Of a stretch of DNA of 64,000 nucleotides, positions 1,539-39,429 are shown piece after piece; position 1 is the first letter of the stretch, and each line of letters opens with the position of its first letter. The position numbers and the translations under genes are program-made. Source of the DNA: an uncultured Candidatus Saccharibacteria bacterium. GTDB taxonomy: Bacteria; Patescibacteriota; Minisyncoccia; Phycocordibacterales; Phycocordibacteraceae. The stretch is from contig CAZJZB010000002.1 in assembly GCA_964550425.1 (NCBI GenBank), positions 1,626-65,625 on the forward strand. The letters run 5' to 3'. The notes below the pieces were generated by a model. The model worked only from the letters and a program-made list of their open reading frames with translations, searched no databases and had not been told where the DNA came from.

Positions 1539-1625
1539 CGCACCAATTAATACCACGAAAGAAAAGGCAGTTCATTTATACCCACGTTGCACGGTACTAC
1601 GGACACCTGTTGCTATACTGGTAAC

Positions 1626-2138
1626 ATGCGGCGAATGCTCATTATCATTGGATTGGCGCTTGTTGTTGCTATTGCTGCGTTCATTCTCTCCGGACCCGGA
1701 CAGCATCCCCAAAAGAATCCGCTCCATGATGTCGCCGAGGCAAATTTATCCCCGAGAGCCGTGCCGTTCACAAAGCTCGCGCGTGGCACCTATTCGACCG
1801 TAACTAAGCGCGTCAACTACCTCATTACCTCGCCGACCGAACTAGACGAACTTTGGCAGATGCTTGACGCGAAGGGGAACAAGCCCTCGGTCGATTTCAC
1901 ACAAAACGAGGTCATCGCGGTTTTTGCGGGGCAACAACAAGATGCACATCATGAGGTTACGGTCTCAGAGGTTCAGGATGCTGCCGCACGCACAATTTCT
2001 ATAACGTTCACAAATCCGAGCGCCAACTGTGCATCAAAGAAGGCCACCACTGCACCCTACGAGGTCATTGCGATACCGGCCACGTCACTTCCCATCACGC
2101 ACGAGAATATCTCTACGACCACTACCTGCTCGGAGTAA
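1626..2138 (+). CDS. hypothetical membrane-anchored/secreted protein (N-terminal TM helix MRRMLIIIGLALVVAIAAFIL)
   Basis: ORF track 1587..2138; start chosen at the ATG preceding the hydrophobic helix. No confident domain assignment. Confidence 0.45.
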   Translation: MRRMLIIIGLALVVAIAAFILSGPGQHPQKNPLHDVAEANLSPRAVPFTKLARGTYSTVTKRVNYLITSPTELDELWQMLDAKGNKPSVDFTQNEVIAVFAGQQQDAHHEVTVSEVQDAAARTISITFTNPSANCASKKATTAPYEVIAIPATSLPITHENISTTTTCSE

Positions 2139-2176: not shown

Positions 2177-3931
2177 ATGGATGCAAAAGCGCATTTTCAT
2201 GGGAAGCGCATTACCGTGATGGGTCTCGGCCTCTTGGGCCGTGGCGTGGGGGATGCGCGGTATCTGGCCGAATGCGGTGCGGAGCTCATTGTGACCGACC
2301 TTAAAACGCGTGAGGAGCTCGCAGAATCGGTAGCGCAGTTGGAGTCATTCTCAAACATCACATTTATCTTTGGCGAACACCGACTCGAAGATTTCCGCGA
2401 CCGCGATCTCATCCTTAAGGCCGCAGGCGTTCCCTTTGATTCGCCCTATATTGCGGAGGCGAAGAAACACAAGATACCGGTCCGCATGAGCGCTGATTTA
2501 TTTGCGGAGATCTCAAAGATTTCCATCATCGGCGTGACGGGCACCCGCGGCAAATCGACCGTGGCGCACATGGTGTACGCCATTCTCAAAGAAGCCGGAA
2601 GGAAGGCCGTGCTCGGGGGGAACGTGCGCGGTGTTTCAAATCTTGAACTGTTAAAAGAGGTTACATCAGAACATACTGCCGTACTTGAACTTGACTCGTG
2701 GCAGCTACAAGGGTGGGGCGACGCGAAGATGAGCCCATATATCGCGGTATTTACCACACTCTACCCGGATCATTTGAACTATTATGGTTCGACTTCGCTC
2801 ACCACAGGCACGAACAATCTGGATGCATATTTAGCGGACAAAGCGAATATCTTCCGCTTCCAGAAGCCCGCGGATACGCTCATACTCGGCAAGCAGTGTG
2901 CACCGACTATCATTGATACGTACGGCGAGCAGATTGAATCAAAAACGTCCATCATTGACGAGACGAAGATTCCTGATACCTGGGTTCTGAAGGTTCCCGG
3001 GATGCATAATCGTTACGACGCCGCACTCGCGCTCGCTGCCGCTCGCGCGGCCGGCGCCCCTGACGAGACGAGCCGTAAGGCGCTCGAGGTGTTTGTCGGC
3101 GTCCCGGGCCGACTTGAGCTCGTGAGGGAGGTGAAAGGCGTGAAGATATATAACGACACTACCTCAACCACGCCAGAGGCAACACTTGCTGCACTCTCTG
3201 CGTTCGATCCGGCGCACACAATACTGGTCATGGGAGGCGCCGATAAGATCCTCGACATGGAAGTGCTGCTCGCACGTCTTCCAGAAACAAAGAAAGTCAT
3301 TGCGCTCGCCGGCAGTGGTACGGAACGTATCAAAAGCCAGTTGCCAGAAGGTACGGTGACGTACCATTCTATCTTTGATGCAACCGCCGCTGCGCTCTGC
3401 GCTGCCGGGCTTGGCGACATCGTCCTTCTCTCGCCGGCATTTGCTTCATTTGGCATGTTCAAGAACGAATTTGATCGCGGGGATCAGTTCAATACGCTGA
3501 TTCGCAACATACCCGATATAAGCTTGCTCAAGCCGAAAGTCAGAGAACTCGCAGGTCGGTTGATTACAGAGTGCGAGCGGCGAGGATTCGCCGTTGTTGT
3601 TTCTCGGGCGTTCCGCACATCCGAGGAGCAGGACGAATTCTATGCGCAGGGACGGACGAAATCGGGAGCAATCATCACTATGGCACAGGGAGGTTCATCT
3701 TTTCATAACTACGGAGTCGCATTTGATATAAAGCCAATAGTCACAGACGGCGATGAAAAGACGAGAGCGGAGCTATACCGGAAAGCGGGGAAGATTGGCA
3801 TGGACCTCGGGCTTGAATGGGGCGGGATCTGGAAAGAATTTGTAGATCCACCACACTTTCAGTACACAGCCGGGTACTCGATCGAGGACTTTAAAAATGG
3901 TCGAATAGAAGAGGAAAAATTTTCCCTATGA
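2177..3931 (+). CDS. murD: UDP-N-acetylmuramoylalanine--D-glutamate ligase (MurD) fused to a C-terminal peptidase M15 (CwlK/VanY-like, L-Ala-D-Glu peptidase-type) domain
   Basis: The N-terminal about 440 aa is a Mur ligase (ITVMGLGLLGRG Rossmann-like, GVTGTRGKST P-loop, MurD-like architecture). The C-terminal about 130 aa has the M15 SxHxxGxAxD (SFHNYGVAFD) and W...H (LEWGGIW...PPHFQ) motifs. Confidence 0.8.
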   Translation: MDAKAHFHGKRITVMGLGLLGRGVGDARYLAECGAELIVTDLKTREELAESVAQLESFSNITFIFGEHRLEDFRDRDLILKAAGVPFDSPYIAEAKKHKIPVRMSADLFAEISKISIIGVTGTRGKSTVAHMVYAILKEAGRKAVLGGNVRGVSNLELLKEVTSEHTAVLELDSWQLQGWGDAKMSPYIAVFTTLYPDHLNYYGSTSLTTGTNNLDAYLADKANIFRFQKPADTLILGKQCAPTIIDTYGEQIESKTSIIDETKIPDTWVLKVPGMHNRYDAALALAAARAAGAPDETSRKALEVFVGVPGRLELVREVKGVKIYNDTTSTTPEATLAALSAFDPAHTILVMGGADKILDMEVLLARLPETKKVIALAGSGTERIKSQLPEGTVTYHSIFDATAAALCAAGLGDIVLLSPAFASFGMFKNEFDRGDQFNTLIRNIPDISLLKPKVRELAGRLITECERRGFAVVVSRAFRTSEEQDEFYAQGRTKSGAIITMAQGGSSFHNYGVAFDIKPIVTDGDEKTRAELYRKAGKIGMDLGLEWGGIWKEFVDPPHFQYTAGYSIEDFKNGRIEEEKFSL

Positions 3932-5196
3932 AAAAGCTCCATTTTATCGGCATCGGCGGTATCGGGATGAGTGCCCTGGCGCAGTATTTTAAAGACCAAG
4001 GGGCAATAATGACGGGTTCAGATAGGGAATCGAGTCCGGTGACTGAGCTTCTGGAACAGAAGGGAATGAAAGTTGTGATAGGGCAGAGGTTCGAGAATGT
4101 GCCGACTGACGCAGAGATGGTCGTCTACAGCGATGCGGTCCCGGCGGACAACTCCGAACGCGTCCGTGCGGAGGAACTCGGTATTCCGCAGAAGTCGTAC
4201 TTTCAGATGATCGGCAGGGTTTCAGCGGAGAAGCGCACAGTCGCAGTCGCGGGTACGCACGGCAAGACGACCACGACCGGGATGCTTGCCAAGATTTTGA
4301 AAGACGCAGGAGTATCGCCAACGGCAATTATTGGTTCAATCGTGAAAGATTTTGATTCAAATTATCTGCATGGCGATTCTGATTTATTTGTTGTCGAGGC
4401 ATGTGAATATCGTGATCATCTTCTCGAACTCTTACCACAAGTCCTCGTGATCACAAATCTTGAGTGGGACCATACGGATTATTTCCCATCACTCAAAGCA
4501 TTACAAGACACATTTAAAAAAGCGATTGAGAGAGTTCCTGCGGACGGGGTTATTGTCACCGACCCGACCCATAAAAATATCGCGCCGCTTCTTGCTGCCG
4601 CGCGGGCGCATATTGCTGATTACACGCAAGAGCCCGCGTATACGCTCCGCCTACCTGGAGAATTCAACATGATGAATGCGCGCGCGGCCGCTGCGGCCGC
4701 GCGCGCCGCCCTTCCATCCATTTCAGACAAAATAATTGTCGAATCGCTTTCAGCATTCCAAGGCACATGGCGCCGTTTTGAATACAAAGGAAAAACTTCC
4801 AGCGGCGCGGATGTTTATGATGACTACGCCCACCATCCGACGGCGGTACAAGCGACTCTGAAAGCGCTTCGAGCGCAAACGAAAGGAAAGATCATTGTCG
4901 CCTTCCACCCACACCTTTTCAGTCGCACCAAGGATCTCCTCGATGAATTCGCCGTCGCCTTTGCCGACGCCGACCAAGTATTCATCGCGCCTATTTATGC
5001 TGCCCGCGAAGTGGATGACGGGACGATCTCAAGCGAATTACTCGCCAAACGTATCCGGGATGCCGGTACGGACGCGACCGCACTTGATTCTTTTAGCGCC
5101 ATTGAGCGCTCTCTCAGTGATGCCAAGAAAGGCGACACCATCATGGCAATGGGTGCCGGCGACATTTACAAGATCGCCGATGCGATTATTGTATGA
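3928..5196 (+). CDS. murC: UDP-N-acetylmuramate--L-alanine ligase (MurC)
   Basis: MKKLHFIGIGGIGMSALAQ N-terminus and AVAGTHGKTTTTGML P-loop, typical of MurC. ATGA overlap with murD. Confidence 0.85.
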   Translation: MKKLHFIGIGGIGMSALAQYFKDQGAIMTGSDRESSPVTELLEQKGMKVVIGQRFENVPTDAEMVVYSDAVPADNSERVRAEELGIPQKSYFQMIGRVSAEKRTVAVAGTHGKTTTTGMLAKILKDAGVSPTAIIGSIVKDFDSNYLHGDSDLFVVEACEYRDHLLELLPQVLVITNLEWDHTDYFPSLKALQDTFKKAIERVPADGVIVTDPTHKNIAPLLAAARAHIADYTQEPAYTLRLPGEFNMMNARAAAAAARAALPSISDKIIVESLSAFQGTWRRFEYKGKTSSGADVYDDYAHHPTAVQATLKALRAQTKGKIIVAFHPHLFSRTKDLLDEFAVAFADADQVFIAPIYAAREVDDGTISSELLAKRIRDAGTDATALDSFSAIERSLSDAKKGDTIMAMGAGDIYKIADAIIV

Positions 5197-6113: not shown

Positions 6114-7952
6114 ATGGAAAACCCAGAACGCGTTACCTACTTCGCGGCAACTGATTCGCGGGGGAAGTATGTGCCTTTCGGCATCAAGGCGAAGGACCGG
6201 GACCGCCACATGTACGTTATCGGCAAAACCGGCATGGGCAAGTCGACCTTGCTCGAGAACATGGCGATCCAGGATCTCAGGAACGGCGAAGGATTCGCTT
6301 TCATTGATCCGCACGGGGGAACCGTCGACCGGCTTCTCGATTATATTCCCGAAGACCGCATACAGGACGTGGTGTACTTCGCTCCGTTCGATCTAGAGCA
6401 TCCTATCGCGTTCAATGTGATGGAGGACGTCGGTTACGACAAGCGCCACCTCGTCGTGAGCGGCCTCATGGCGACTTTCAAGAAGATATGGGTAGACGCA
6501 TGGAGTTCCCGCATGGAGTACATTCTCACGAACACACTCCTTGCTCTGCTTGAGTATCCGGGCGCGACTCTTTTGGGCGTGAACCGCATGTATACGGACA
6601 AAGAGTATAGGAAAAAAGTCGTTGAAAACGTGAAAGATCCGGTCGTGAAGGACTTCTGGACGAAGGAGTACGCGGTCTACACTGACCGTTACACGCAGGA
6701 GGCGACGCCCGCCATCCAGAACAAAGTCGGCCAATTTACCGGCAACCCGCTCATCAGGAACATTATCGGGCAGCCGAAATCCTCATTTGATATTCGCACG
6801 ATGATGGACGAGAAGAAAATACTCATCATCAATCTTTCCAAGGGTCTCGTGGGAGAGACCAATATGCGGCTTCTCGGTTCCATGCTCACGACGCGCATAT
6901 TCCTCGCCGCGATGAGCCGTGCGAATCTTCCCGCCGAAGGCCTCAAGAAGCTCCCGAATTTTTATTTCTATGTTGATGAGTTCCAGAATTTCGCGAACGA
7001 GACCTTCGCGGAGATCCTCTCTGAGGCGCGCAAATATAAATTGAATCTCGTCATTGCGCATCAGTACATAGAGCAGATGGAAGAAGAAGTGCGCGATGCC
7101 GTCTTCGGCAACGTAGGCACGACAATCGTCTTCCGGGTGGGGCCTTTTGACGCCGAAGTGCTGGAGACCATTTTCATGCCAAGGTTCACGAAGGAGGACG
7201 TCGTCGTACTCGATCGCCGGCAGATATATCTCACGCTCATGATAGACGGGGTCGGATCGGAACCTTTCTCAGCGGTAACGATTCCTCCGATAGAGCCGCC
7301 ACCTTCCTCTCACAGAGAAAAAGTACTCGCCTCATCGCGCACGCAATTCACCGCGCTGCGCGCCGGAGTCGAGAAAACCATTATGGAAGAACTCGCTGCA
7401 AGCGGATTCTCCGAACCCGCGCCCGAAGCGCGGATGCGCAGAAAACCGACAGGTACAAATCCGCCCCTCCGTCAGAGTGCGGAACCGGTCAAATCGTTTA
7501 TGCCCCGCGAAGCGACTGGGTCCGTGCCGCTCGTGCAGGCGAAACATACTGTTGCGCCTCCTGTGAGTACGCGTCCGAATCTGCCGGTAAAAAACATCGC
7601 TACTTTTCCAGCAAAAAACATTCCCGTCTCCGGCGGGAAATCATCAGAAGACCTGAAGTCGATCCTGCGCACCATGACTGCGAAGACCGGCGCGGAGAGG
7701 GAAGAGAAGAAATCACAAAACCAACAGTCCCTCAAAGGAGTTCTTGCGGACGTATTAACGCGAGGTGAGCAACCGAAGAAAGCGCAACAATCCACGCCGG
7801 CCCGGCCGCCTTTGGAGGCCCCGCCGCAGCAGAATCTTCTTGCAGCAGCTCCAGCGACAGTCGGCACCTCGTCAAGTGTCCCGATGCGCGAGAAAAAGCC
7901 CTTCGAGGTTTCCGAAGATACGCTCCGAAAGGTGTTCAAAGACGAGACATAA
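6114..7952 (+). CDS. TraD/VirD4-like (FtsK/HerA superfamily, DUF87-type) P-loop ATPase with an about 230-aa Pro/Ala/Ser/Gln-rich disordered C-terminal tail
   Basis: Walker A is VIGKTGMGKST and Walker B is FYFYVDEFQNF...LNLVIAHQY. No N-terminal TM segment. The low-complexity tail runs from about 7250 to 7950. Confidence 0.7.
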   Translation: MENPERVTYFAATDSRGKYVPFGIKAKDRDRHMYVIGKTGMGKSTLLENMAIQDLRNGEGFAFIDPHGGTVDRLLDYIPEDRIQDVVYFAPFDLEHPIAFNVMEDVGYDKRHLVVSGLMATFKKIWVDAWSSRMEYILTNTLLALLEYPGATLLGVNRMYTDKEYRKKVVENVKDPVVKDFWTKEYAVYTDRYTQEATPAIQNKVGQFTGNPLIRNIIGQPKSSFDIRTMMDEKKILIINLSKGLVGETNMRLLGSMLTTRIFLAAMSRANLPAEGLKKLPNFYFYVDEFQNFANETFAEILSEARKYKLNLVIAHQYIEQMEEEVRDAVFGNVGTTIVFRVGPFDAEVLETIFMPRFTKEDVVVLDRRQIYLTLMIDGVGSEPFSAVTIPPIEPPPSSHREKVLASSRTQFTALRAGVEKTIMEELAASGFSEPAPEARMRRKPTGTNPPLRQSAEPVKSFMPREATGSVPLVQAKHTVAPPVSTRPNLPVKNIATFPAKNIPVSGGKSSEDLKSILRTMTAKTGAEREEKKSQNQQSLKGVLADVLTRGEQPKKAQQSTPARPPLEAPPQQNLLAAAPATVGTSSSVPMREKKPFEVSEDTLRKVFKDET

Positions 7953-7960
7953 TCATTTTT

Positions 7961-9379
7961 ATGCGCACACTCGGCTTGTTCATGCTAGCCATTCTCTTCC
8001 CTGCGTTTGCTCATGCCTCAGTCATCATCACCGAGATCATGTATGACTATCCCGGCACCGAAGGAAGCGGAGATCATGATTGGGTCGAGATATACAACAA
8101 CGGGCAATCAACGGTTGATCTTGGGGGTTCAACCGTGCGTTTTATGGAACGGGGGAACAATCATATTATTGCGTCGTTCAACGGAAGTTCGACACTACTT
8201 GCACCCGGTGCGGTGGCGGTAATTGCCAACAATCCCACACAGACCAAACTTGATTTCCCGAACATAGGACTCTTGCTTGATAGTTCATTTTCTTTGACGG
8301 GAACTACCACAGCGCTCGGCATCATTATTGACGGCATCAATGTTAGTCCGGTGACCTACACACCCGCACCCAGCGCATCAAATCTCGGCGATTCTCTCCA
8401 ACTGATTAATGGGGCCTGGAGTGCTGCGACACCGACGCCTGGCACGTATGCCGGAACATCTTCTTCCGCTGATGATTCCGGCGATTCTTCGATCTCCTCT
8501 TCCGATTCTTCATCGGTTGTCACAATTCAAACTTCTTCAAGCGGCGCGCCGGCTGAATATCTTCCTATACCGACGCTCCGCATAGTAACCGGGGGCGATC
8601 GTACGGTATCAACAGGAGCAGATACTGTATTCACCGCCGTCGTATATGACGGTAAAGGCAATAAGCGTGATGATGCTACGGTGCTATGGTCGTTTGGCGA
8701 CGGCATGCAGAGAACCGGTGCGAGCGTCTATCACAAGTATTACGATCCAGGCGAATATGTCGCGATTGTGCGCGCCACTACTTCCGACGGCGGAGATGCG
8801 CGAAGCGAAATGGTCATGACGGTGAAGAATGCCGGCATTAAAATTGTTTCAGTATCAACTCGCGGCATCACGCTGGAAAATACAGATTCGCGCATGCTCG
8901 ATCTCTCGCTCTGGCGTCTATCAATGGGCGGAAAAGAATTTAGAATACCGGAGGACACGCAGATTCTCGCCGGCAAGACAATTCTATTTCCGTCGCAGAT
9001 AATTCAACTCCCGATATCAGATACGGCATCGCTTCTGTATCCGAGTGGTGAGGTGGTGTTTGTGTACCCGCCATCGCTTCCAGCGAAGCAACCTTTCACT
9101 CCCGTGTCGAGTTATGAAAAAGTACAGGCGGTCCGCCTTGAGGAAGCTCCGGCGAGACAGGCCGAAGCAATTATCAGTACAAAAACGAACATTCAAACAC
9201 ATGAGGAAGCAGTAGCCGCCCCCGCAGCGACGACAAAGCTCGCCGCTGCGGGGGCGGCATTGCTCCCGTCTCAAGCACCGCCCGTCACCGCACCTGCTTC
9301 TGGTCTTCTCCATTCGCCATGGACACTCAGTTTCCTCGGCATCGTTGCGCTTGCCGCCAGTGCATTCATATTTCTCTAA
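7961..9379 (+). CDS. secreted cell-surface protein with lamin-tail domain(s) and a PKD domain, Ser-rich linker, C-terminal TM anchor
   Basis: Signal peptide MRTLGLFMLAILFPAFAHA. Lamin-tail-domain signature ITEIMYDYPGTEGSGDHDWVEIYN. PKD-like WSFGDG...YHKYYDPGEYVAIVRATTSDGG. C-terminal hydrophobic stretch LSFLGIVALAASAFIFL. Confidence 0.75.
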   Translation: MRTLGLFMLAILFPAFAHASVIITEIMYDYPGTEGSGDHDWVEIYNNGQSTVDLGGSTVRFMERGNNHIIASFNGSSTLLAPGAVAVIANNPTQTKLDFPNIGLLLDSSFSLTGTTTALGIIIDGINVSPVTYTPAPSASNLGDSLQLINGAWSAATPTPGTYAGTSSSADDSGDSSISSSDSSSVVTIQTSSSGAPAEYLPIPTLRIVTGGDRTVSTGADTVFTAVVYDGKGNKRDDATVLWSFGDGMQRTGASVYHKYYDPGEYVAIVRATTSDGGDARSEMVMTVKNAGIKIVSVSTRGITLENTDSRMLDLSLWRLSMGGKEFRIPEDTQILAGKTILFPSQIIQLPISDTASLLYPSGEVVFVYPPSLPAKQPFTPVSSYEKVQAVRLEEAPARQAEAIISTKTNIQTHEEAVAAPAATTKLAAAGAALLPSQAPPVTAPASGLLHSPWTLSFLGIVALAASAFIFL

Positions 9380-9418: not shown

Positions 9419-10552
9419 ATGAAGCGCGTACTCATCTTCTCCCTCGCTTATTACCCGCATGTCGGCGGAGCTGAAGTCGCTCTCAAAGAAATCACCGACC
9501 GCCTGTCTGATAGTGAATTTCACATGCTCACACTCAACTTCGGCGCTGATGCACCGGAAGAAAAAATCGGGAATATTTTTGTACACCGGATAGGGAACAG
9601 CTCCTCGTATCTTTCTAAAATCTTGTTTGCGCCGCGCGCCGCAAGAGCGGCGCGCGTTCTCCATCAAACGCTTCATTTCGACGCTTTCTGGGCGCTGATG
9701 TCTTACATGCTGTTTCCCATCGTCCTGCTTCGCCTCATCGGAATTCGCGTGCCGTATCTGCTTTCGCTCCAAGAAGGCGATCCTTTCTCGCGTATGTTCA
9801 ATCGCTGGTTTATCCTCCCATTCCGACCACTCCTCTCTATCGGATTCCGAAATGCTTCGGCAGTGCAAGCTATCTCCACGTATCTTGCTCAGTGGGCAAC
9901 TATTATGGGTTTCAAAAAAGAGGTTGCAGTTATCCCAAATGGGGTAGATCTCGAACGTTTTACGGAAACCTCACATCCTACCATCGTGACCGCAGGCGTC
10001 GTTAATCTCATTACCGCCTCCCGCTTGGTCTACAAGAACGCGCTTGATGAGGTCATTCGGGCTCTCGCACTGCTGCCGGAAAACGTTCAGTTTGTAGTAT
10101 ATGGCAGCGGTCCTGACGAAAAGAAATTGCGTTCGCTCGCCGAAGATTTAAAGGTGTCAAACCGTGTACTCTTTAAAGGCCACAGGCCTCATGCTGATTT
10201 AGCTCGAGCATTTGCCACGGCCCATATCTTTATCCGTCCTTCGCGTTCAGAAGGAATGGGAAACTCGTTTGTTGAAGCGATGGCGGCTGGGCTGCCAGTT
10301 ATCGGGACGCAGGAGGGCGGCATCAGCGACTTCCTCTTTGATGCGAAAAGAAACCCCGATAAGGAGCCGACCGGCTGGGCGGTTGATGTTGATTCGCCAG
10401 AACAAGTCGCAGAAGCGGTTAGGGATATTCTTACTCATCCCGAACAGGTTGCGCAGATGACCGCGAATGCTAAACGCATGGTGACGGAGAAATATGATTG
10501 GAATCTCATCGCCAAGCAGATGCGGGGCATATTCGCTAGAATAGGCGTATGA
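9419..10552 (+). CDS. glycosyltransferase family 4 (GT-B, glycos_transf_1)
   Basis: Has the C-terminal GT4 motif RPSRSEGMGNSFVEAMAAGLPVIGT. Confidence 0.8.
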   Translation: MKRVLIFSLAYYPHVGGAEVALKEITDRLSDSEFHMLTLNFGADAPEEKIGNIFVHRIGNSSSYLSKILFAPRAARAARVLHQTLHFDAFWALMSYMLFPIVLLRLIGIRVPYLLSLQEGDPFSRMFNRWFILPFRPLLSIGFRNASAVQAISTYLAQWATIMGFKKEVAVIPNGVDLERFTETSHPTIVTAGVVNLITASRLVYKNALDEVIRALALLPENVQFVVYGSGPDEKKLRSLAEDLKVSNRVLFKGHRPHADLARAFATAHIFIRPSRSEGMGNSFVEAMAAGLPVIGTQEGGISDFLFDAKRNPDKEPTGWAVDVDSPEQVAEAVRDILTHPEQVAQMTANAKRMVTEKYDWNLIAKQMRGIFARIGV

Positions 10553-11643
10553 AGCTCGTCATCGCGACCCCCCTCTATCCGCCCGAAATAGGCGGTCCGG
10601 CGACCTACGTGAAGCTCTTAGAAGAGGGACTACCCAAGAGGGGTATCGGAGTTTCTGTGGTCAAATTTGGCGAGGTGCGGTATTTGCCGAAGCTTATCCG
10701 GCACTATGTCTACTACCGCCGCGTCCTCGCGGCGGCGCGCGGTGCCGACGCCGTTCTCGCGCTTGACCCGGTCTCGGTCGGCTTGCCGGCGATGAAGGCG
10801 GCGCAAAAGGCGGGGAAGCCCTTTGTCGTGAAGGTTGTGGGCGACTATGCGTGGGAGCAGGGTACCCAGCGGTTTGGCGTAAAGCAGAATCTAGATGAGT
10901 TCGTGCGCACGCCACAAAAATCTTTCTTCGTACGCAGAATGCAAAGAGTTCAGACGCTTGTGGCACAAAGCGCCGCACAGGTTATCGTGCCGAGCGAATA
11001 TCTGAAAGGTATCGTAACAGCGTGGGGCATCTCAAGCCAGAAGATACAGGTTATCTATAATGCCGTGTCTATCGATTCAATAGGGACAGTGCCTGAAGCC
11101 ATGAATAAACTACCGCGACCATTAGTTGTCTCTGTTGGTCGCCTCGTACCATGGAAGGGTATGGACCGCCTCATCGATGGAATGTGGGCAGCACGTAGAA
11201 AAGGGTCAAATGCCTCGCTGGTTATTGTGGGTAGCGGACCTCTAAAAACCGAACTTGAGAGGAAAGCAAGATTTCTACTAAAGGATAATTACTGGTTTGC
11301 TGGAGAGCTCTCGCATATTGATACACTCGCGGCCATCAAAGATGCCGATATTTTCGTCCTAAATTCTTCGTATGAAGGGCTTTCGCATGTCTTGATAGAG
11401 GCTCTCAAGCTTGGAACATGCATTCTCACCACGAACGCTGGAGGAAATGACGAGATTGTTGTACGAGGCACCGGGATTACCATTAAAGTCGGGGATGAAG
11501 CTCGATTTGCTTCGAGCCTTCGAATACTTATTGAACACCAGGAAGAACGATCTCGTCTTTCATCTGCTGCGAAACAATCCGGACAAAGGTTTTCGTTAGA
11601 AACTATGCTCTCTGCAACGGTTACGGCGTTGCAAAACATATGA
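10549..11643 (+). CDS. glycosyltransferase family 4
   Basis: The YPPEIGGPATYV N-terminus and SYEGLSHVLIEALKLGTCILTT motif are typical of GT4. ATGA overlap with the upstream gene. Confidence 0.8.
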   Translation: MKLVIATPLYPPEIGGPATYVKLLEEGLPKRGIGVSVVKFGEVRYLPKLIRHYVYYRRVLAAARGADAVLALDPVSVGLPAMKAAQKAGKPFVVKVVGDYAWEQGTQRFGVKQNLDEFVRTPQKSFFVRRMQRVQTLVAQSAAQVIVPSEYLKGIVTAWGISSQKIQVIYNAVSIDSIGTVPEAMNKLPRPLVVSVGRLVPWKGMDRLIDGMWAARRKGSNASLVIVGSGPLKTELERKARFLLKDNYWFAGELSHIDTLAAIKDADIFVLNSSYEGLSHVLIEALKLGTCILTTNAGGNDEIVVRGTGITIKVGDEARFASSLRILIEHQEERSRLSSAAKQSGQRFSLETMLSATVTALQNI

Positions 11644-12761
11644 AAGTCCTCTTTATTTCAAATGATCCGACGATATTTGATGCGGGGAGCGTTGCTCGCG
11701 GGCGCATGCGCACATACGCGGCGTTCATGGGAGAATTGCACATTCTGTCTTTTGCCGATCGAAATACAACAGAAGAGCAAGAACAAAATCTTTTTCTTCA
11801 TCCAGTGCATGCATGGGCATTCTTGCGCATTCGTGTGCTCGCGGAGCGGGCACACGAACTTATTCTGAAGCATGACATTGAAGTTGTCTCGGCGCAGGAC
11901 CCTTTTGAACATGGACTTGCCGCGCTACGGGCCGTGCAGGGCACGAACGCGAAGCTGCATATTCAAGTGCATACCGATTTTCTTTCACCATGGTTTGTGA
12001 AGGGTGGCACGTTACGCACCTCATTCCTCAATCGTTACCGCCGTAGGATCGCTGATCGTGTTTTGCCAGCGGCTAGCGGTGTCCGAGCAGTTTCCGAGCG
12101 CGTAAAGGATTCACTTGTGGCCCGCTATGGTTCGCGCATTCCCGAACCATCGGTCATTCCCCTTACGGTTTCTATGGAGATACCAACACGCGCATCATTG
12201 CCTACGCACACCTTCACTTTCGCACTCATTGCGGTCGGGCGCTTGGAGCCCGAGAAACGCATTGAGGATATCCTTACAGCACTCTCGCTTGTCATCAAGC
12301 AGTATCCGATACTAGGACTTTTCATCGTCGGCGATGGTCGCGAGCGCGGTCGGCTTGAACGCCTGACACGTACTCTTAATCTTGAGAAACATATCGTCTT
12401 TCTCGGAGAACGTTCCGACGCGCGAGCGCTTATGGGAAGCGCGCAGGCATTCATCCAAGCGAGCGCGTATGAGGGATATGGCCGTACGCTTATTGAGGCA
12501 GCGCTTGCCAGGATTCCTATCATCACGACCGATGTCGGCATCGTGGGGGAAATATTTAAAGACCATACAGATGTGCTTGTAGCGCCGGTTGCCAATCCCA
12601 AAGCTCTCTCGCTCAATATCATCAGATTCATAGAAGATACCGCGATGCGACAAGAACTTCCGAGGCACGCCGAAGATACTGCGCGAGTGCATCTTGCCGT
12701 ACAAGGGAATATCGCGGAACGCATCCGGGACGACCTCATAGGCACACTGCAGAAGATATGA
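11640..12761 (+). CDS. glycosyltransferase family 4
   Basis: Has the GT4 motif SAYEGYGRTLIEAALARIPIITTDVG. ATGA overlap. Confidence 0.8.
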   Translation: MKVLFISNDPTIFDAGSVARGRMRTYAAFMGELHILSFADRNTTEEQEQNLFLHPVHAWAFLRIRVLAERAHELILKHDIEVVSAQDPFEHGLAALRAVQGTNAKLHIQVHTDFLSPWFVKGGTLRTSFLNRYRRRIADRVLPAASGVRAVSERVKDSLVARYGSRIPEPSVIPLTVSMEIPTRASLPTHTFTFALIAVGRLEPEKRIEDILTALSLVIKQYPILGLFIVGDGRERGRLERLTRTLNLEKHIVFLGERSDARALMGSAQAFIQASAYEGYGRTLIEAALARIPIITTDVGIVGEIFKDHTDVLVAPVANPKALSLNIIRFIEDTAMRQELPRHAEDTARVHLAVQGNIAERIRDDLIGTLQKI

Positions 12762-13852
12762 CAACACGAGCGCAGAAACGCCTTACCATTTGTTTTTTTG
12801 GTTACGATGAGAAAGATGAAGGCGGACGCGCATGGACAATACGGACCGGTCTTGCTGAAAACGGTGTCACGATCAAACAGTGTCGGACGCTTGTTAACGG
12901 GTTTTTTCCGAAATATCGCAATCTATATCTGAAATGGAGAGACATATCAGCTGTGGATGCGATGTACGTTATTTTCATGGGCTACTATCTGATGCCGCTT
13001 GCGTGGTACCTCGCGCGCCGACGGGGGATTCCGGTAATACTCGATACGCTCGTATCGCAATATGATACCGAAGTCACAGATCGCAAGAGAGTGTCGCGTT
13101 TTAGTTTGCGTGCGTGGTTTTTATGGGCAGCGGATTTCATTTCCTGTTTCATTGCCGATGCGATTGTCGTTGATACGCGCGAGCATAAGAGATTTTTTGC
13201 CGAAAAGTTCTTCGTCAATCCTCGGAAGATTATCATCATTCCTGTCGGATGCCGTTCCGACCTCTTCAAACCGTTTCCTCATGTGAAGAAATCGGACGAT
13301 GAATGTACCGTTGAATTTCACGGGGGGTTTAGTCCATTACATGGCGTCGAATACATCATGGAGGCAGCAAAAATTCTGCAGGATAAGAATGAGAATGTAC
13401 ATTTTGAGATTACCGGCAGAGGGCAAATGTTTGCAGAGATCACTCATATGGCTAGAGAGCTTCATCTCGCGAACGTTGCATTTTTTGATATGAAACCAAT
13501 AGAAGAACTTCCTCGTTCTATTGCGCGAGGCGATATATGTCTCGGTGTATTTGGAACGAGCGCAAAGGCATTGCGTATTATTCCAAATAAGGTTTATGAA
13601 TGTCTCAGTTGCGGAAAGCCGGTCATCACCGAACGTTCCCCGGCCGCGCTTGAGATGTTGCACGATCGCGAAGATGTCTACATGGTAGAGCCAGGTAATG
13701 GGACCAATCTTGCCGAGAAAATCTTGGAACTGAAACACAACTCAGCGGAGCGCGCCCGTCTCGGCGAGCGCGCCCGCGCCATCTCGCTTGCCGCATTCTC
13801 CTCGCATACAATCACTCTTCCGCTCGTAGAGTGGCTCGAATCACACGCATGA
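12758..13852 (+). CDS. glycosyltransferase, GT4-like
   Basis: Has the C-terminal motif KVYECLSCGKPVITERS and Rossmann-like halves. ATGA overlap. Confidence 0.7.
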   Translation: MTTRAQKRLTICFFGYDEKDEGGRAWTIRTGLAENGVTIKQCRTLVNGFFPKYRNLYLKWRDISAVDAMYVIFMGYYLMPLAWYLARRRGIPVILDTLVSQYDTEVTDRKRVSRFSLRAWFLWAADFISCFIADAIVVDTREHKRFFAEKFFVNPRKIIIIPVGCRSDLFKPFPHVKKSDDECTVEFHGGFSPLHGVEYIMEAAKILQDKNENVHFEITGRGQMFAEITHMARELHLANVAFFDMKPIEELPRSIARGDICLGVFGTSAKALRIIPNKVYECLSCGKPVITERSPAALEMLHDREDVYMVEPGNGTNLAEKILELKHNSAERARLGERARAISLAAFSSHTITLPLVEWLESHA

Positions 13853-13917
13853 ATCCCGTTAGAAATCACGAACCACAACCAATAAACCGAAAAACATCGG
13901 GTTCTATTTCTAACGGG

Positions 13918-14901
13918 ATGAAGCTACTGATCATCACCCAAGTAGTTGATTCCGAAGACCCGATATTGGGATTTTTTCACCGTTGGATAGAGGAGTTTGC
14001 CAAGCATGTCGAGCGAGTCGAGGTTATTTGTCTCAAGGAGGGTCGCCACGTTCTGCCGGCACATGTACAGGTTCATTCTCTGGGCAAAGAACGTGGAGCA
14101 GTCGGGCGCGCCACGTACGCGCTACGCTTTCTCCTGCTTGCATGGCGCTTGCGGCGCGATTACAACGCGGTTTTCGTGCATATGAATCCCGAATACGTTA
14201 TGCTCGCCGGGCCGCTCTGGCGGCTCTGGGGCAAGCATGTCGCCTTATGGTACACACATAAAAGCGTCAATCTGAAATTACGGATAGCAGTTCTATTTGC
14301 ACATGTCGTTTTCACCGCCTCGATAGAGAGTTTCCGGTTGGGGACAGCGAAACTCCGCATCATGGGGCATGGCATCGATGTTGATTTTTTCTCTCCCGAT
14401 TCAAGCGTACAGCGAGGAACTACAGTGCTTTCAGTAGGTCGACTTTCCCCGATAAAGCGCCACGATATCGTCATTCGCGCGGCGAAGCATTTCCCAAATG
14501 ACGTCCATATCGCAGGCGATGGACCGGAAATGCGTCATTTAGAGAATCTAACAAAACATCTCTCCCTCGTTTCGCGCGTGCATTTTCTAGGATCGAAAAC
14601 ACAAGAACAATTGCGAGAAGAATACCGGCGGGCAGGCGTCTTCGTTCATGCGAGCGAGACGGGTAGTTTGGACAAAGTCGTGCTTGAAGCGCTCGCCTGC
14701 GGCCTCCCGGTCATTACGACGAGCGCGTCTTTAAAGAATCTTCCGGTCACTGTAGTGTCCGCCACGCCGGATGCCATCGCACAAGCAGTTATCAGCGTGC
14801 GAGACGCGAACGCGCAATCGCTCGTTACCTATGTACAAGAACATCATTCGCTGCAGCGTCTCGTTCCCACGATACTTGGTATTATGCGAGACACTATATG
14901 A
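13918..14901 (+). CDS. glycosyltransferase family 4
   Basis: ORF track 13831..14901; start chosen at MKLLIITQV (ATG 13918). Carries the motif ASETGSLDKVVLEALACGLPVITT. Confidence 0.75.
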   Translation: MKLLIITQVVDSEDPILGFFHRWIEEFAKHVERVEVICLKEGRHVLPAHVQVHSLGKERGAVGRATYALRFLLLAWRLRRDYNAVFVHMNPEYVMLAGPLWRLWGKHVALWYTHKSVNLKLRIAVLFAHVVFTASIESFRLGTAKLRIMGHGIDVDFFSPDSSVQRGTTVLSVGRLSPIKRHDIVIRAAKHFPNDVHIAGDGPEMRHLENLTKHLSLVSRVHFLGSKTQEQLREEYRRAGVFVHASETGSLDKVVLEALACGLPVITTSASLKNLPVTVVSATPDAIAQAVISVRDANAQSLVTYVQEHHSLQRLVPTILGIMRDTI

Positions 14902-15992
14902 AAATCGGATTCGTCGCAGAGCCCTATGAAGAGTCCGGTGCTTCCGGCATGGGCTATATGATTTGGGAGTTCTTGAAAAATCTGCCTGTTGCGGGAAGAA
15001 ACCACGAGTTCACCATCTATTCTTCTATGCCTATACGAAAAGATCTTGTACCAGTTCCTGTGCGCAATGTCATAGTCCCAAAAGGTTTTCTAGGGAAGTT
15101 TCTCTGGTTTTTATGGACAAAGGAAGATATAGATGTCCTCTTGTTTGTTACGCCGCTCCTGCCGCTCATACTGCCACATCGCATTGGGGCAGTGTCTATT
15201 TGTCCGGAACTAGTGAGTCAAAAAATAATGCCCGGATCGCTCCGCGACAAATTCTTGGCATTTCTTCGCGATTATATACTTATGCCGATATGCTTGCGGC
15301 GTGCTCTTAAAATCATCACTATCTCGCACGCTACAAAAGAAGATATAATTAAATATTATAAGATTCCATCAGAGGATATCTCCGTCATATACGTTGGTTT
15401 TCAGGACCTCAGCCCGTATAAAGACACAGCGCCCGTGGTTGATGAGAAAATCAAGCCATATTTCTTTTTTACTGGAAGGGTAAAACCGCGTAAAAATGTC
15501 CACGCGATAGTATCCGCATTCATACGATTCAAGAAACGGACGCACGCTGACTGCAAGCTTGTGATAGCAGGCAAGGCCGGTGGCGACTATTACCAATTGA
15601 TGCTTACAGAGCTTGAGAAAAATGGAATGCAAGCCGATGTATTTTTTGTCGGTTATGTGTCGACGGAATTGCTCTGTTCGTATTACATGCATGCGTTGGC
15701 GTTTGTCTTTCCGTCGCTAAACGAAGGGTTCGGCATGCCGGTTGTTGAGGCAATGAACCTTGGTGCGCCCGTTATTACCTCCTCTATTTCATCTCTACCC
15801 GAGGCGGCCGGAGACGCAGGGTTATTGGTTGATCCATATGATATCGAGGATATTAGCCGCGCTATGGAAAAAATATTTTCTGATTCCGGTCTGCGCGCGA
15901 CACTTATCGAAAGAGGATACGCGCAGGCAAAGAAATTCTCTTGGGAGAAAACAGCGAGAGAATATATGTCCGTCATAGAAGGGGTCATATGA
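14898..15992 (+). CDS. glycosyltransferase family 4
   Basis: Has the GT4 motif PSLNEGFGMPVVEAMNLGAPVITSS. ATGA overlap. Confidence 0.8.
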   Translation: MKIGFVAEPYEESGASGMGYMIWEFLKNLPVAGRNHEFTIYSSMPIRKDLVPVPVRNVIVPKGFLGKFLWFLWTKEDIDVLLFVTPLLPLILPHRIGAVSICPELVSQKIMPGSLRDKFLAFLRDYILMPICLRRALKIITISHATKEDIIKYYKIPSEDISVIYVGFQDLSPYKDTAPVVDEKIKPYFFFTGRVKPRKNVHAIVSAFIRFKKRTHADCKLVIAGKAGGDYYQLMLTELEKNGMQADVFFVGYVSTELLCSYYMHALAFVFPSLNEGFGMPVVEAMNLGAPVITSSISSLPEAAGDAGLLVDPYDIEDISRAMEKIFSDSGLRATLIERGYAQAKKFSWEKTAREYMSVIEGVI

Positions 15993-19095: not shown

Positions 19096-19854
19096 TTATT
19101 TTTTTATCGTCGTTGACGGAGAATCCCGCCAATATTCTCCAGCCTGTATCTGTATTGTTGCCATCGTTTCTTTCTCCATTGTTTCCTTCCACGTGGGTAA
19201 CTGTCGTGCCGCATCTATGACTTTCTTATAATGCGGATTAGCCACGAGAAGAACCTCTTCTGCAGAGACGAACGCAATATATACCGACTGCATTTCTTTG
19301 AATTTTTTTAATGCTTCTTGCACTTCCGGTTTTTCTGAGTATCCATTAGGATCGTGTAAGTCATTGATATGCGCAAGCATCGCTTGTGCTCTCGGGATAT
19401 GAAATTCATTAGCGATTACCACTGTATTATGCCAATCGTTTTGTACGATCAGTTTGATAAGTTCGATAAGTTCAGTGAAGGTAGAGTAGGATTCTTCTTG
19501 AATAATTATCTTTTCTTGTTGAACCCCCCTGTTTTGTAGTTCTTGTGCGGTAACACGCGCCATACTGGCAGGCATCTGTGGTATCAAGCTATTAGCGACT
19601 ACCGACGAGTTAGGAAAAAAACGATGCAGTTCTGCCGCGGCGATACTCCTGGCCTTCGCCCCACCAACCATCCCGTGTAGATCGGTATCCCCGTAGCCCA
19701 ACGATTTAAATTCGCCGGTGGCTTTATTTTCGACTACGCCACGAGCCAAGATAAATAGCACGTCTGGTTTACCCCCGCAGAGCTGTTCATAGATTCGTCT
19801 TTTCTCAGACTCTAATGCAGAAACATCGGGATTCGGAATATGCTCTCTGACCAT
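19096..19854 (-). CDS. DUF218 (YdcF/ElyC/SanA-like) family protein
   Basis: Conserved VVIANEFHIPRA motif (family HMPRA-like) and GGK... segment. Confidence 0.5.
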   Translation of the reverse strand: MVREHIPNPDVSALESEKRRIYEQLCGGKPDVLFILARGVVENKATGEFKSLGYGDTDLHGMVGGAKARSIAAAELHRFFPNSSVVANSLIPQMPASMARVTAQELQNRGVQQEKIIIQEESYSTFTELIELIKLIVQNDWHNTVVIANEFHIPRAQAMLAHINDLHDPNGYSEKPEVQEALKKFKEMQSVYIAFVSAEEVLLVANPHYKKVIDAARQLPTWKETMEKETMATIQIQAGEYWRDSPSTTIKK

Positions 19855-19916
19855 GTGTGCATTATTGTAGGTCTTGTTTTGTACTACGTCAAATCTGCTA
19901 TGATACTTTTATATCT

Positions 19917-21704
19917 ATGTTCAGGATAAAAGAATTTCTCCGGCAACACCGTCCCGCTGCAGTGCTTGTGGCGATTACGCTGATACTCACGACCATTCCA
20001 GTTCTTGATATATTTCTTGTCCTCGGTAACACCTGGCAGGGCATTACGCCTACGTTCGGCGACGAAACTTTTTATCTGGCGCGCGTACAGACAATAGTAA
20101 AAGGACATATCACTGCAGGCAATCCGTATTTTATGGAACACAGTGATGGTCCGCCACTGGTCATCTTTGCTGGCGTCTGGCTCAACGCTCTACCGCAGCT
20201 AGCGGGGTTCTCACTCAATGTATCGCTTCTCATCAACTTCGTTCTGTGGAGCTTAGTATTTGTCGCATCGCTCTACTGGCTTTTTCGAGAGTTACGGGTG
20301 CCTCCTTGGATAGCAGTGTTCGGTACGATGTTCCTCTATATACAGTCGTATTGGCACGTCTGGCGACCGGTTAATCTCCAGACGGTATACCCCCTTTATT
20401 TTCTATTCTATCTAACGCTTCTACGCCTTATTCGTGAACAGAGCCGCAAGAACATTATCCTCGTTGGTCTCACGACCGGTTCGACCTTCTACCTCTTCGC
20501 CTATCTATGGCAAACGATCGTCATCACGCTCGGTCTCCTCTTCTTATATGCACTCGCCAGAAAGGATTGGCCGCTCCTGAAGGCCACACTCCTCTCCTCA
20601 TGTATTGGAGGTGTCATTGGGCTTCCTGTCCCGCTTTACGCACTTTGGCTCTCTCATACCTCGCCATATTTCTGGGAAAGTGTCGGTCGTCTTGGACTCG
20701 TCAATACACATTTACCAATGGCTGAAGTCATTTATTCGGGTGGATGGATCGGCGCCGTACTCGCACTACTGGCGATTCTCTTTTGGCGTACCCGCGCTCT
20801 ACGCGAAGACAAAGAATTCATATTTCTCAGTCTGTTCCTCACACTGAGCGGGTTCGGTCTCTGGATTATGCAGGGGAGCAATCTCATCACGGGAAAATTA
20901 TTGGAGACCGGTGAGCACGTTCGTTTATTAATCCAACCATGGCTTGTATTTTCCACCATCAGCATTGGAGTATTTCTCTGGAAGCAGCGTACGCACATAT
21001 CAAAAGAACTTCGAACACTTTCAGTTATTGTGATCGCTCTGTTGTCAGCCGTGAGTGTGCAGTACGCCTATCAACGCTTCTCCCCGTTTCTTATTACACA
21101 AGTGGATCGCGGAGCATGGCAAACTGCACAGCTCTATGCGAAACCCTTTGCATGGCTCCAGAATGCAGAAAAGGATCCTGTTGTCGTATGGAGTAACCCC
21201 GAAAACTATCTAACAACCTATCTACCCATATTTACGAAACACCTCACGCTCTATACGTGGCCCGGAATGATGGAACTGGTGCCCGAGGGTGAAATTCATG
21301 AGCGGTATCTCATTGCTCACTATTTTAATAATCCGACCACGGCAGACCTCAGGAATGATCTAGCCAGGTACGTTGGGCGGCAAGACGCTGCTCATGCGGC
21401 AAAGACCATTGAGCGTAAAATAAAAATATGCCGAGTACTTTTCTTTTTCGAAAAGAACAAAAACTGCGGGATCATACCAACGCCCCAGAGTTTGCTCGGT
21501 GACCAGTTTTTTACTGACCTTGAGAAAAAGTTCCAAACGGATATAAAACTCAATATTAAAGCGTATCTCAAGAAATATCACGTCTCATATATTCTTAAAG
21601 ATAAGGTGCTGGACCCAGAGTATCATCCAGAGAAACTAGGAGCAGTATTGGTATACACTGATGATCGCTATGAAATCTACCACCTCTTGTATGACCACAA
21701 ATAA
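19917..21704 (+). CDS. large polytopic membrane protein, probable glycan-assembly membrane enzyme (GT-C-like or polymerase). Function not assigned.
   Basis: ORF track 19857..21704; start at MFRIKEFL (ATG 19917). More than 10 predicted hydrophobic helices followed by a soluble C-terminal domain. Confidence 0.55.
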   Translation: MFRIKEFLRQHRPAAVLVAITLILTTIPVLDIFLVLGNTWQGITPTFGDETFYLARVQTIVKGHITAGNPYFMEHSDGPPLVIFAGVWLNALPQLAGFSLNVSLLINFVLWSLVFVASLYWLFRELRVPPWIAVFGTMFLYIQSYWHVWRPVNLQTVYPLYFLFYLTLLRLIREQSRKNIILVGLTTGSTFYLFAYLWQTIVITLGLLFLYALARKDWPLLKATLLSSCIGGVIGLPVPLYALWLSHTSPYFWESVGRLGLVNTHLPMAEVIYSGGWIGAVLALLAILFWRTRALREDKEFIFLSLFLTLSGFGLWIMQGSNLITGKLLETGEHVRLLIQPWLVFSTISIGVFLWKQRTHISKELRTLSVIVIALLSAVSVQYAYQRFSPFLITQVDRGAWQTAQLYAKPFAWLQNAEKDPVVVWSNPENYLTTYLPIFTKHLTLYTWPGMMELVPEGEIHERYLIAHYFNNPTTADLRNDLARYVGRQDAAHAAKTIERKIKICRVLFFFEKNKNCGIIPTPQSLLGDQFFTDLEKKFQTDIKLNIKAYLKKYHVSYILKDKVLDPEYHPEKLGAVLVYTDDRYEIYHLLYDHK

Positions 21705-30246: not shown

Positions 30247-30325
30247 ACTGGGTGATAGTACCTCATTTTTAGTCGAAATTGCAACTAAAGTAACCAGGTA
30301 TGATACGATTAAGTTACTAGTAGCA

Positions 30326-39325: not shown

Positions 39326-39405
39326 GACGTAAAAATGCAGTACGAGACACTATTGCATCGCCTCAGCGATTGTGCAAGGGTCAGAAACCCCGGGCGGTAT
39401 CTGTT

Positions 39406-39414
39406 TGTTATAAT
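39406..39414 (+). promoter_or_regulatory. putative extended -10 promoter element (TGTTATAAT) 16 nt upstream of the ATG at 39430
   Basis: Seen in the divergent intergenic region 39326-39429. No clear -35 element. Confidence 0.3.
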
Positions 39415-39429
39415 CTGCAAGCACTCGAA

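Follow-up and report, generated by a model that had tools for sequence, protein, structure and literature searches.

A murD gene continued in frame by an M15 peptidase in a Candidatus Saccharibacteria genome: a new architecture built from known parts

Canonical MurD enzymes (EC 6.3.2.9; TIGR01087; structures 3LK7 and 1E0D/2JFF) have three full domains, a P-loop and a C-terminal D-Glu-binding region, are found with murC as a neighbour, and stop about 7 residues past the motif RGDQF. Fusions between enzymes of peptidoglycan precursor synthesis are known: MurC-Ddl (NF011171), MurE-MurF (NF008896) and the Verrucomicrobium MurB-MurC protein (PMC4803751) place neighbouring precursor genes in one polypeptide, and all of them join two synthetic steps. 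PgeF is a cytoplasmic proofreading amidase at the MurC step, which strips misligated Ser or Gly from UDP-N-acetylmuramic acid (UDP-MurNAc) precursors, while endolysin-type peptidases act on the assembled wall outside the membrane, using a wall-binding domain, a signal peptide or a holin; leaderless M15 endopeptidases such as ChiX stay apparently idle in the cytoplasm until a holin releases them (PMC12280929, PMC4259817). In this work, we describe a gene, murD::M15, located in a window of 64,000 nucleotides (nt), the whole stretch of DNA analysed, which is part of the genome of an uncultured Candidatus Saccharibacteria bacterium (Patescibacteria, Kaiserbacteria/Paceibacteria-like; contig CAZJZB010000002.1). 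It shares with canonical MurD all the features listed above, but 139 hydrolase residues continue directly where the canonical chain stops; unlike the known Mur fusions, it combines a synthetic enzyme with a hydrolase from a family that cuts the very bond this enzyme forms. The gene and its parts, in window positions, are the following.

2177..3931, + strand: murD::M15 fusion open reading frame (ORF), 584 amino acids (aa), TGA stop included (ATG start, continuous reading frame, domains, AlphaFold2 (AF2) model).
2177..3511, + strand: MurD half, aa 1-445 (TIGR01087, PDB alignment, Foldseek, identity to homologs).
2540..2560, + strand: ATP-binding P-loop, G122-T-R-G-K-S-T128 (aligned with GSNGKTT of 3LK7).
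3509..3514, + strand: zero-linker junction, I445 (ATA) / P446 (CCC) (sequence comparison, AF2).
3512..3928, + strand: M15 (LAS-type) zinc peptidase half, aa 446-584, of the endolysin-like L-Ala-D-Glu endopeptidase family (Pfam, PDB, PHROG).
3698..3727, + strand: zinc-ligand motif 1, S508-x-H510-x-x-G-x-A-x-D517, reading S-F-H-N-Y-G-V-A-F-D (invariant in stand-alone and fused homologs).
3845..3856, + strand: catalytic and zinc-ligand motif 2, D557-P-P-H560, of the D-x-x-H type (invariant in homologs, aligned with D-Y-P-H of Ply500).

The ORF runs from 2177 to 3931 without an internal stop or a change of frame, and the predicted protein, about 64 kDa in size, would reside in the cytoplasm. Five Pfam domains, every one exceeding its gathering score, follow each other along the chain: MurD-like_N (aa 10-102), Mur_ligase_M (120-239), Mur_ligase_C (311-421), VanY (450-522) and Peptidase_M15_4 (505-563). 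The original prediction, made from the letters and their reading frames, of a single in-frame ORF holding MurD and an M15 domain with both zinc motifs is borne out by the ORF, by Pfam, by TIGR01087 and by the sequence itself; its peptidase domain, put at about 130 aa, is correct in kind, but measures 139 aa (446-584). AF2 models the whole fusion with a mean predicted local distance difference test score (pLDDT) of 90.5 and a predicted TM-score (pTM) of 0.83, a short turn (pLDDT about 87 over residues 441-450) linking the last MurD helix, 433-443, to the first peptidase helix, 453-468. No solved structure covering both halves was found by PDB/Foldseek fold search, no database source names the MurD::M15 architecture, and literature searches turned up neither an account of a MurD-M15 fusion nor one of Patescibacteria recycling their peptidoglycan. 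The protein is thus a new domain architecture made of known parts, each half being an ordinary member of its family.

The MurD half scores 305.4 bits against the murD equivalog model TIGR01087 (cutoff 211.95), residues 11-443 spanning model positions 1-440 of 441. It has the three-domain Mur-ligase layout with a MurD-type N domain (PF21799, PF08245 and PF02875, all above gathering score), it aligns end to end with solved MurDs, namely 3LK7 (E = 6e-57) and the E. coli enzyme 1E0D, and its top 33 Foldseek matches are all MurD. The P-loop residues G125 and T128 are invariant in the alignment of homologs, the C-terminal region ...LLSPAFASFGMFKNEFDRGDQF (also given as …SPAFASFGMFKNEFDRGDQF) aligns with 3LK7, and the C domain, aa 311-421, is followed by the C-terminal helix 433-443, which closes this half. 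Judged on these conserved features, it looks catalytically competent. It was originally stated that the MurD product goes on to include the L-Ala-D-Glu bond; the bond is rightly placed in that product, but it is MurD itself that forms it. A 9-residue insertion, GSTSLTTGT (aa 204-212, 2786-2812), where AF2 confidence is low (pLDDT < 50 at aa 206-210), is found in the window MurD and in none of its close homologs.

The M15 half scores 47.9 bits with PF13539 and 34.6 bits with PF02557 (cutoffs 25), and its best PHROG families are endolysins (E = 4.5e-34). A PDB chain search with residues 446-584 gave only four matches at E <= 0.01: the L-alanyl-D-glutamate peptidase Ply500 of a Listeria phage (2VO9, 3e-21), LysB4 of a Bacillus phage (6AKV, 8e-21), the M15C-domain protein 23RI, and 8Q2G, annotated as a peptidoglycan L-Ala-D-Glu endopeptidase. 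The zinc ligands H510, D517 and H560, the catalytic acid D557, and also R480 and Q485, are invariant in the stand-alone and in all fused homologs; E547-W-G-G precedes D557-P-P-H560. Ply500, LysB4, 8Q2G, Serratia ChiX and B. subtilis CwlK share with the window domain the fold family and the zinc and catalytic motifs. By homology, then, this half belongs with the L-Ala-D-Glu endopeptidases; we infer that it cleaves the L-Ala-D-Glu bond, and it looks catalytically competent. The earlier link between an M15/CwlK-type domain and cleavage of this bond is consequently upheld as far as the family is concerned, by 2VO9, 6AKV, 8Q2G, the PHROG endolysins and the D-x-x-H motif.

A D-Ala-D-Ala peptidase of VanX/VanY type was considered and rejected. 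VanX/VanY enzymes carry the catalytic motif E-x-x-H, while the motif here is D-P-P-H, and no VanX or VanY chain is found among the PDB matches at E <= 0.01.

The nearest homologs of the M15 half are stand-alone proteins of Patescibacteria, about 139-146 aa long and 65-67% identical to it, annotated at source as 'CwlK' or 'M15 family metallopeptidase'. The window domain keeps all of the 31 positions that are at least 95% conserved among 120 such proteins. These proteins are not fragments of fused genes: 117 of the 120 start with Met, their leaders are short, and no MurD remnant is seen in them. The leader before the first helix (LKPKV) typically counts 6 residues, and therefore leaves no room for a signal peptide; indeed, a signal peptide was found neither in the fusion nor in any of the 120, and its absence is a trait shared with ChiX and the phage endolysins. 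Pfam detects no SH3 or peptidoglycan-binding domain on the fusion. Of the three means of access to the assembled wall that were considered, a signal peptide, a wall-binding domain or a holin partner, none accompanies the fusion in the 64-kb window. The window peptidase thus differs from the endolysin-type enzymes in being the C-terminal domain of a cytoplasmic biosynthetic ligase, without a wall-binding domain, and in having its bond specificity assigned by inference.

At the loci examined, stand-alone M15 genes sit among miscellaneous housekeeping genes, and no lysis cassette, holin or phage genes lie beside them. In the window, which is 64 kb and a part of the genome, there is no holin, lysis cassette, phage gene, peptide transporter, murI or second M15 gene. 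An origin of the peptidase from a prophage or lysis cassette was accordingly discarded, no holin or phage genes being found either in the window or beside the stand-alone homologs. Two arrangements of stand-alone genes may be recorded here. In Candidatus Niyogibacteria (GCA_002772995.1, L001-L003), an M15 gene, whose product is 66% identical to the window domain, closes a dcw-type cluster, two genes past a Mur ligase, in the order mraZ-rsmH-(small ORF)-penicillin-binding protein-Mur ligase-152 aa unknown-M15. At another locus (L014, 1381-2492), a stand-alone M15 gene, its product 67% identical to the window domain, has an S51 peptidase gene as its immediate downstream neighbour. Since one genome also has an S51 peptidase in the slot after murD, the two peptidases may be functionally linked.

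The junction between the two halves has no linker. I445 occupies the position of the normal last residue of MurD, and P446 corresponds to residue 2 of a stand-alone M15 protein. Among unfused MurDs, a tail of 7 residues after RGDQF is found in 65 out of 111, and the last residue is Leu in 62 of those 65; stand-alone M15 proteins start with the pattern M-x-(K/N/D)-(L/I)-x-L-LKPKV, one of them reading MPDLNLLKPKV. Since unfused MurD ends where the peptidase begins, and the stand-alone peptidases start at this same point, only a stop and a start codon would have been lost. No stop, start or leader remnant is present in any frame around the junction.

An exhaustive HMMER search over 1.84 billion cluster representatives, together with a word-indexed search and a metagenome scan, returned seven other fused sequences (P0121, P0127, P0336, P0368, P0388/P0392 and L096), one of which was assembled identically from three sequencing runs. 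All eight share the junction …RGDQ(F/Y)-x7 | P-(D/N)-(L/I)-x-x-L-x-P-x-V…, and the zinc motifs are kept in all eight. The same architecture, which the original prediction proposed to look for in related genomes along with conservation of the motifs among orthologs, is thus found in seven further divergent proteins, in the same register. One of them, P0127 (558 aa), has a DUF7178 domain (aa 23-137) where the N-terminal domain of MurD and the first part of its central domain would be, and is either a chimeric assembly or a truncated derivative that is probably not a ligase.

The source of the window is a metagenome-assembled contig, its fusion is known from one sampled population only, and its closest MurD relatives are unfused, as might be expected if separate murD and cwlK-like genes had been merged by an indel or by a chimeric join during assembly. 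Such an artefact is, however, extremely improbable. The conserved C-terminal residues of MurD (...FKNEFDRGDQFNTLIRNI) and the peptidase share one frame, with no stop, start codon or leftover leader nearby, and the identical 584-aa protein (P0271) is encoded on two contigs from two assemblies, one of 75,790 nt from ENA and one of 78,304 nt from NCBI. Given the continuous ORF, the agreement of the two assemblies, and a junction register matching that of seven divergent sequences from independent, unrelated samples, the fusion is to be taken as real on sequence grounds. There is no support for an internal start from which the peptidase would be translated on its own: the sole nearby in-frame candidate is a TTG at 3524, and no Shine-Dalgarno-like sequence is visible upstream by eye.

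The surroundings of the gene bear on how the fusion came about; three features are needed here.

1587..2138, + strand: PrcB_C-domain gene, synteny marker upstream of the fusion (Pfam; precedes murD in the unfused loci L007-L010).
3928..3931, + strand: ATGA overlap of the fusion stop and the murC start, within the hexamer CTATGA (sequence).
3928..5196, + strand: murC, UDP-MurNAc:L-Ala ligase (TIGR01082, 399 bits against a cutoff of 335; synteny).

Translation of murC is probably coupled to that of the fusion. The order PrcB_C-murD-…-murC-methylase-TraG-like of the window is common to the unfused loci L007-L010, and not to the loci of the other fused genes; the PrcB_C gene is absent upstream of two of these, L011 and L015. 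The TraG/TrwB-like coupling ATPase (612 aa), whose position after murC and the methylase is kept in L007-L010, is followed in the window by a surface protein with Lamin-tail and PKD domains, the two together covering 6114-9379.

Sequence comparison places the window fusion apart from the others. In the MurD half, it shares 76-78% identity with unfused MurDs (Kaiserbacteria, Paceibacterota, Minisyncoccota), against 44-59% with the other fused proteins (55-59% leaving aside the N-terminally aberrant P0127), which are mostly 64-67% identical among themselves; in the M15 half, the figures are 65-67% with stand-alone proteins and 51-60% with fused ones. Bootstrapped neighbour-joining (distance) trees were built separately for the two halves. 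For MurD, 96 of 100 bootstraps recover the other fused proteins as a clade, and 100 of 100 place the window with unfused MurDs, apart from all other fused proteins; monophyly of all fused proteins is recovered in 0 of 100 replicates for MurD and 1 of 200 for M15. The M15 tree, built on 139 columns, is poorly resolved, the fused clade appearing in only 20 of 200 bootstraps. The trees of both halves and the synteny together point to at least two separate origins of the fusion, with a lateral move of the module as the less likely alternative.

A single ancient fusion, after which the peptidase half was lost many times independently or the module was passed on laterally, would account for one feature of the junction: all fused proteins read [I/V]-P-[D/N]-[L/I] at this point, and Pro is found at that position in just 5-9% of stand-alone M15s. 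The shortness and poor resolution of the M15 tree, with its 20 out of 200 for the fused clade, also leave room for it. Nevertheless, we consider it improbable, because the MurD tree separates the window (100/100) from the fused clade (96/100), the PrcB_C synteny ties the window to unfused relatives, and its M15 half is closer to stand-alone than to fused proteins. Moreover, a common register is expected from the loss of an abutting stop/start pair in any lineage. In the close unfused relatives L007 and L009, murD ends in CTATGA, its stop overlapping the next ATG; a 4-nt overlap of murD with the downstream gene is found in 49 of 75 distinct loci, and the M15/murC boundary of the window is likewise CTATGA. 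Loss of such an ATGA pair, wherever it occurs, would therefore recreate the same junction.

A different route is suggested by the codons at the junction. In the window, L011, L015 and L096, the junction residue is either I, encoded by ATA or ATT, or V, encoded by GTC, and a change of the third base alone would give an ATG or GTG start. In the window, I445-S583 make up exactly 139 codons, the modal length of stand-alone M15 proteins, and the next two codons, CTA TGA, are those in which murD normally ends; the sequence thus suggests, as an alternative, that a whole ORF was captured in frame just before the last codon of murD, its ATG becoming ATA.

In the older fused clade, the two halves evolve as one gene. 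For the closest fused pair, L015 and L096 (88% amino-acid identity), the ratio of nonsynonymous to synonymous substitution rates (dN/dS), calculated by the Nei-Gojobori method, comes to 0.15 in the MurD half (dS 0.45) and 0.18 in the M15 half (dS 0.44): the peptidase is constrained about as strongly as MurD. Two positions at least 95% conserved in stand-alone M15s are nonetheless changed in this clade, E547 to S, T or D in 6 of 7 sequences and Q562 to E, also in 6 of 7, and these changes may reflect a shift of specificity. The window keeps the consensus at both, which fits an older, possibly specialised fusion in the clade as against a younger one in the window.

The gene that immediately follows murD, or the fusion, was surveyed in 75 distinct loci of Patescibacteria, and the products were scanned with Pfam. 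The position is occupied as follows.

27/75: MurC.
17/75: Asp/Glu racemase (MurI-like).
8/75: NUDIX.
3/75: PF02578 (YfiH/PgeF family).
2/75: PF00144 serine hydrolase.
2/75: class-I glutamine amidotransferase.
1/75: class-IV (D-amino-acid) aminotransferase.
1/75: DUF218.
1/75: S51 peptidase.
1/75: helix-turn-helix (HTH) protein.
Remainder of the 75: no Pfam match.

As judged from these domain assignments, the murD-murC interval is a variable slot, gathering cytoplasmic enzymes that supply D-Glu or could hydrolyse precursors. In the fused clade, either murI (L015, L096) or an HTH-NUDIX gene (L011) lies between the fusion and murC. Other apparent MurD fusions are also found among cluster representatives (P0122, P0126, P0128, P0135, P0138, P0182, P0209): MurD-MurC (841 aa), MurD-DUF218, MurD-NUDIX, NUDIX-MurD and SET-MurD, as well as a protein of 1330 aa comprising three Mur-ligase units and a double ligase of 887 aa. 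Of these, the MurD-MurC (P0122) and triple Mur-ligase (P0182) fusions are similar to the known Mur fusions.

On this basis, we tentatively propose, at a little less than an even chance, that the M15 half is a cytoplasmic hydrolase coupled to the MurD step, serving salvage or editing on soluble species that contain the L-Ala-D-Glu bond. The cytoplasmic setting is suggested because the stand-alone relatives lack a signal peptide and MurD is itself cytoplasmic. On this reading, a small gene for a leaderless, endolysin-type M15 L-Ala-D-Glu peptidase occupied the variable slot between murD and murC and was joined to murD once the overlapping stop/start pair had gone; sequence comparison shows the last residue of MurD to be directly succeeded by residue 2 of the peptidase. 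Inside the cell, candidate substrates would be stem peptides from turnover or scavenging, the L-Ala-D-Glu dipeptide, and wrong or surplus UDP-MurNAc-peptides. Cutting these would yield L-Ala, D-Glu or UDP-MurNAc-L-Ala, on which the neighbouring MurC and MurD reactions draw, and the fusion would couple salvage or editing to re-ligation. The suggestion of recycling or editing made with the original prediction gains some support from the context, in that the enzymes of the slot and the missing signal peptide favour a cytoplasmic role of this kind.

Several observations weigh against the coupling. The closest characterised relatives are endolysins, which act on polymeric wall outside the membrane, and, as ChiX stays apparently idle in the cytoplasm, cytoplasmic presence is therefore no proof that the enzyme functions there. 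If UDP-MurNAc-L-Ala-D-Glu were cut without regulation, a futile cycle would result. This, and the frequent placing of murI right after the fusion in the fused clade, argues against the peptidase being a plain supplier of D-Glu. The occurrence of MurD fused to MurC, NUDIX, DUF218 and SET suggests that such fusions are mechanistically easy, and possibly neutral. The window fusion is a singleton lineage without a close fused relative, and the architecture as a whole is, in qualitative terms, rare, with at least about 7 clusters at 90% identity across the protein and contig searches, the protein collections comprising about 15 billion sequences; no fusion was found among the best 80 loci of a scan of species-representative genomes, and the metagenome scan gave one among the matches listed.

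Alternatively, the fusion is real but uncoupled and simply tolerated, an ATGA overlap having collapsed in a very compact genome (about 96% coding). The M15 half would then keep its stand-alone role, for example in wall remodelling or in attack on the host wall after release, without any gain from its tie to MurD. This is a strong competitor, only somewhat less likely than the coupled reading. In its favour, ATGA overlaps are usual at the murD boundary (the 49 loci out of 75 mentioned above), so that fusions come cheap, and other partners are indeed joined to MurD; the window peptidase is ordinary, stand-alone-like at all 31 invariant positions, and has no close fused relatives; its nearest characterised homologs are wall-lytic endolysins, with ChiX as a precedent (PMC4259817); and the architecture is rare. 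On the other hand, the same fusion arose at least twice, and one clade kept it through divergence to about 65% identity, with a peptidase dN/dS of 0.18. No route to the wall is evident for an M15 domain tied to a cytoplasmic ligase, with neither a signal peptide nor a holin nearby, and the slot is enriched in cytoplasmic enzymes of the MurC and MurD steps. The coupled cytoplasmic hydrolase is retained as our tentative reading.

A narrower form of the editing idea is that the M15 half proofreads or resets the MurD step in cis, as the position-2 counterpart of PgeF at position 1. Misligated or unwanted UDP-MurNAc-L-Ala-X(-peptide) would be hydrolysed to UDP-MurNAc-L-Ala, to be used again by the attached ligase. 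In a close variant, D-Glu and L-Ala would be set free from scavenged host muropeptides right beside MurD and MurC. We regard both the role and the reaction as unlikely, though worth stating. Aminoacyl-tRNA synthetases carry cis-editing domains, a ligase and a hydrolase for its product being united in one chain, and the design would be analogous if the editing reading were true; no homology is implied. With PgeF/YfiH (PMC12280929, PMC8844914) the likeness is conceptual, both being cytoplasmic hydrolases that would undo the product of a Mur ligase, and that family is found in the murD slot at 3 of the 75 loci. The folds, however, are unrelated (PF02578 versus M15), and PgeF is a separate protein that removes a wrong residue 1, whereas the window hydrolase is part of the ligase chain itself and its target would be the bond between residues 1 and 2, its editing role being conjectural and drawn by analogy. 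In the Pfam scan, PF02578 does not match the fusion, so the resemblance to PgeF is one of proposed role and gene position only.

Much of the remaining window is taken up by a surface-glycan island of about 50 kb (9419-59675), between murD-murC and murB (59672-60736), after which SecA follows (61086-63617). The island opens with six consecutive GT4 glycosyltransferases (9419-15992), and contains further GT4, GT2 and GT47-like genes, several FkbM and C-methyltransferases, RmlC/RmlD-like genes, NeuB with a cytidylyltransferase (nonulosonic acid), a carbamoyltransferase, HisH/HisF-like genes, an ABC exporter, an MBOAT gene and a Wzy_C+TPR protein. Five of its ORFs, of 363-655 aa, have no Pfam match at E <= 0.001 (19857-21704, 29846-31351, 39370-41337, 51148-52374 and 54884-55975). 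Two DUF218 genes lie in the window, at 19096-19854 (- strand) and 36474-37388 (+ strand); elsewhere, this domain is found fused to MurD (P0126) and in the slot downstream of murD. Near the start of the window, a tRNA-Ile(GAT), 652-725, overlaps a 188-aa ORF, 720-1286, which matches the DNA-binding domain of the RnlA toxin (PF19034, 32 bits).

Peptidoglycan precursor synthesis is a major antibiotic target, and control of its fidelity has only just been recognised, with PgeF in 2025; the present gene raises the question whether editing or salvage occurs at a second point, position 2 of the stem peptide. If the proofreading role were true, this would be the first case of a Mur ligase carrying an editing domain of its own, much as aminoacyl-tRNA synthetases do. 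If the fusion were instead neutral, it would be a clean example of how 4-nt ATGA overlaps yield recurrent domain fusions in compact genomes. In addition, the murD-murC slot can be mined for more precursor-handling enzymes. The finding bears, finally, on how ultra-small, host-dependent Patescibacteria, with their minimal biosynthesis, keep up or scavenge D-glutamate and the building blocks of their wall.

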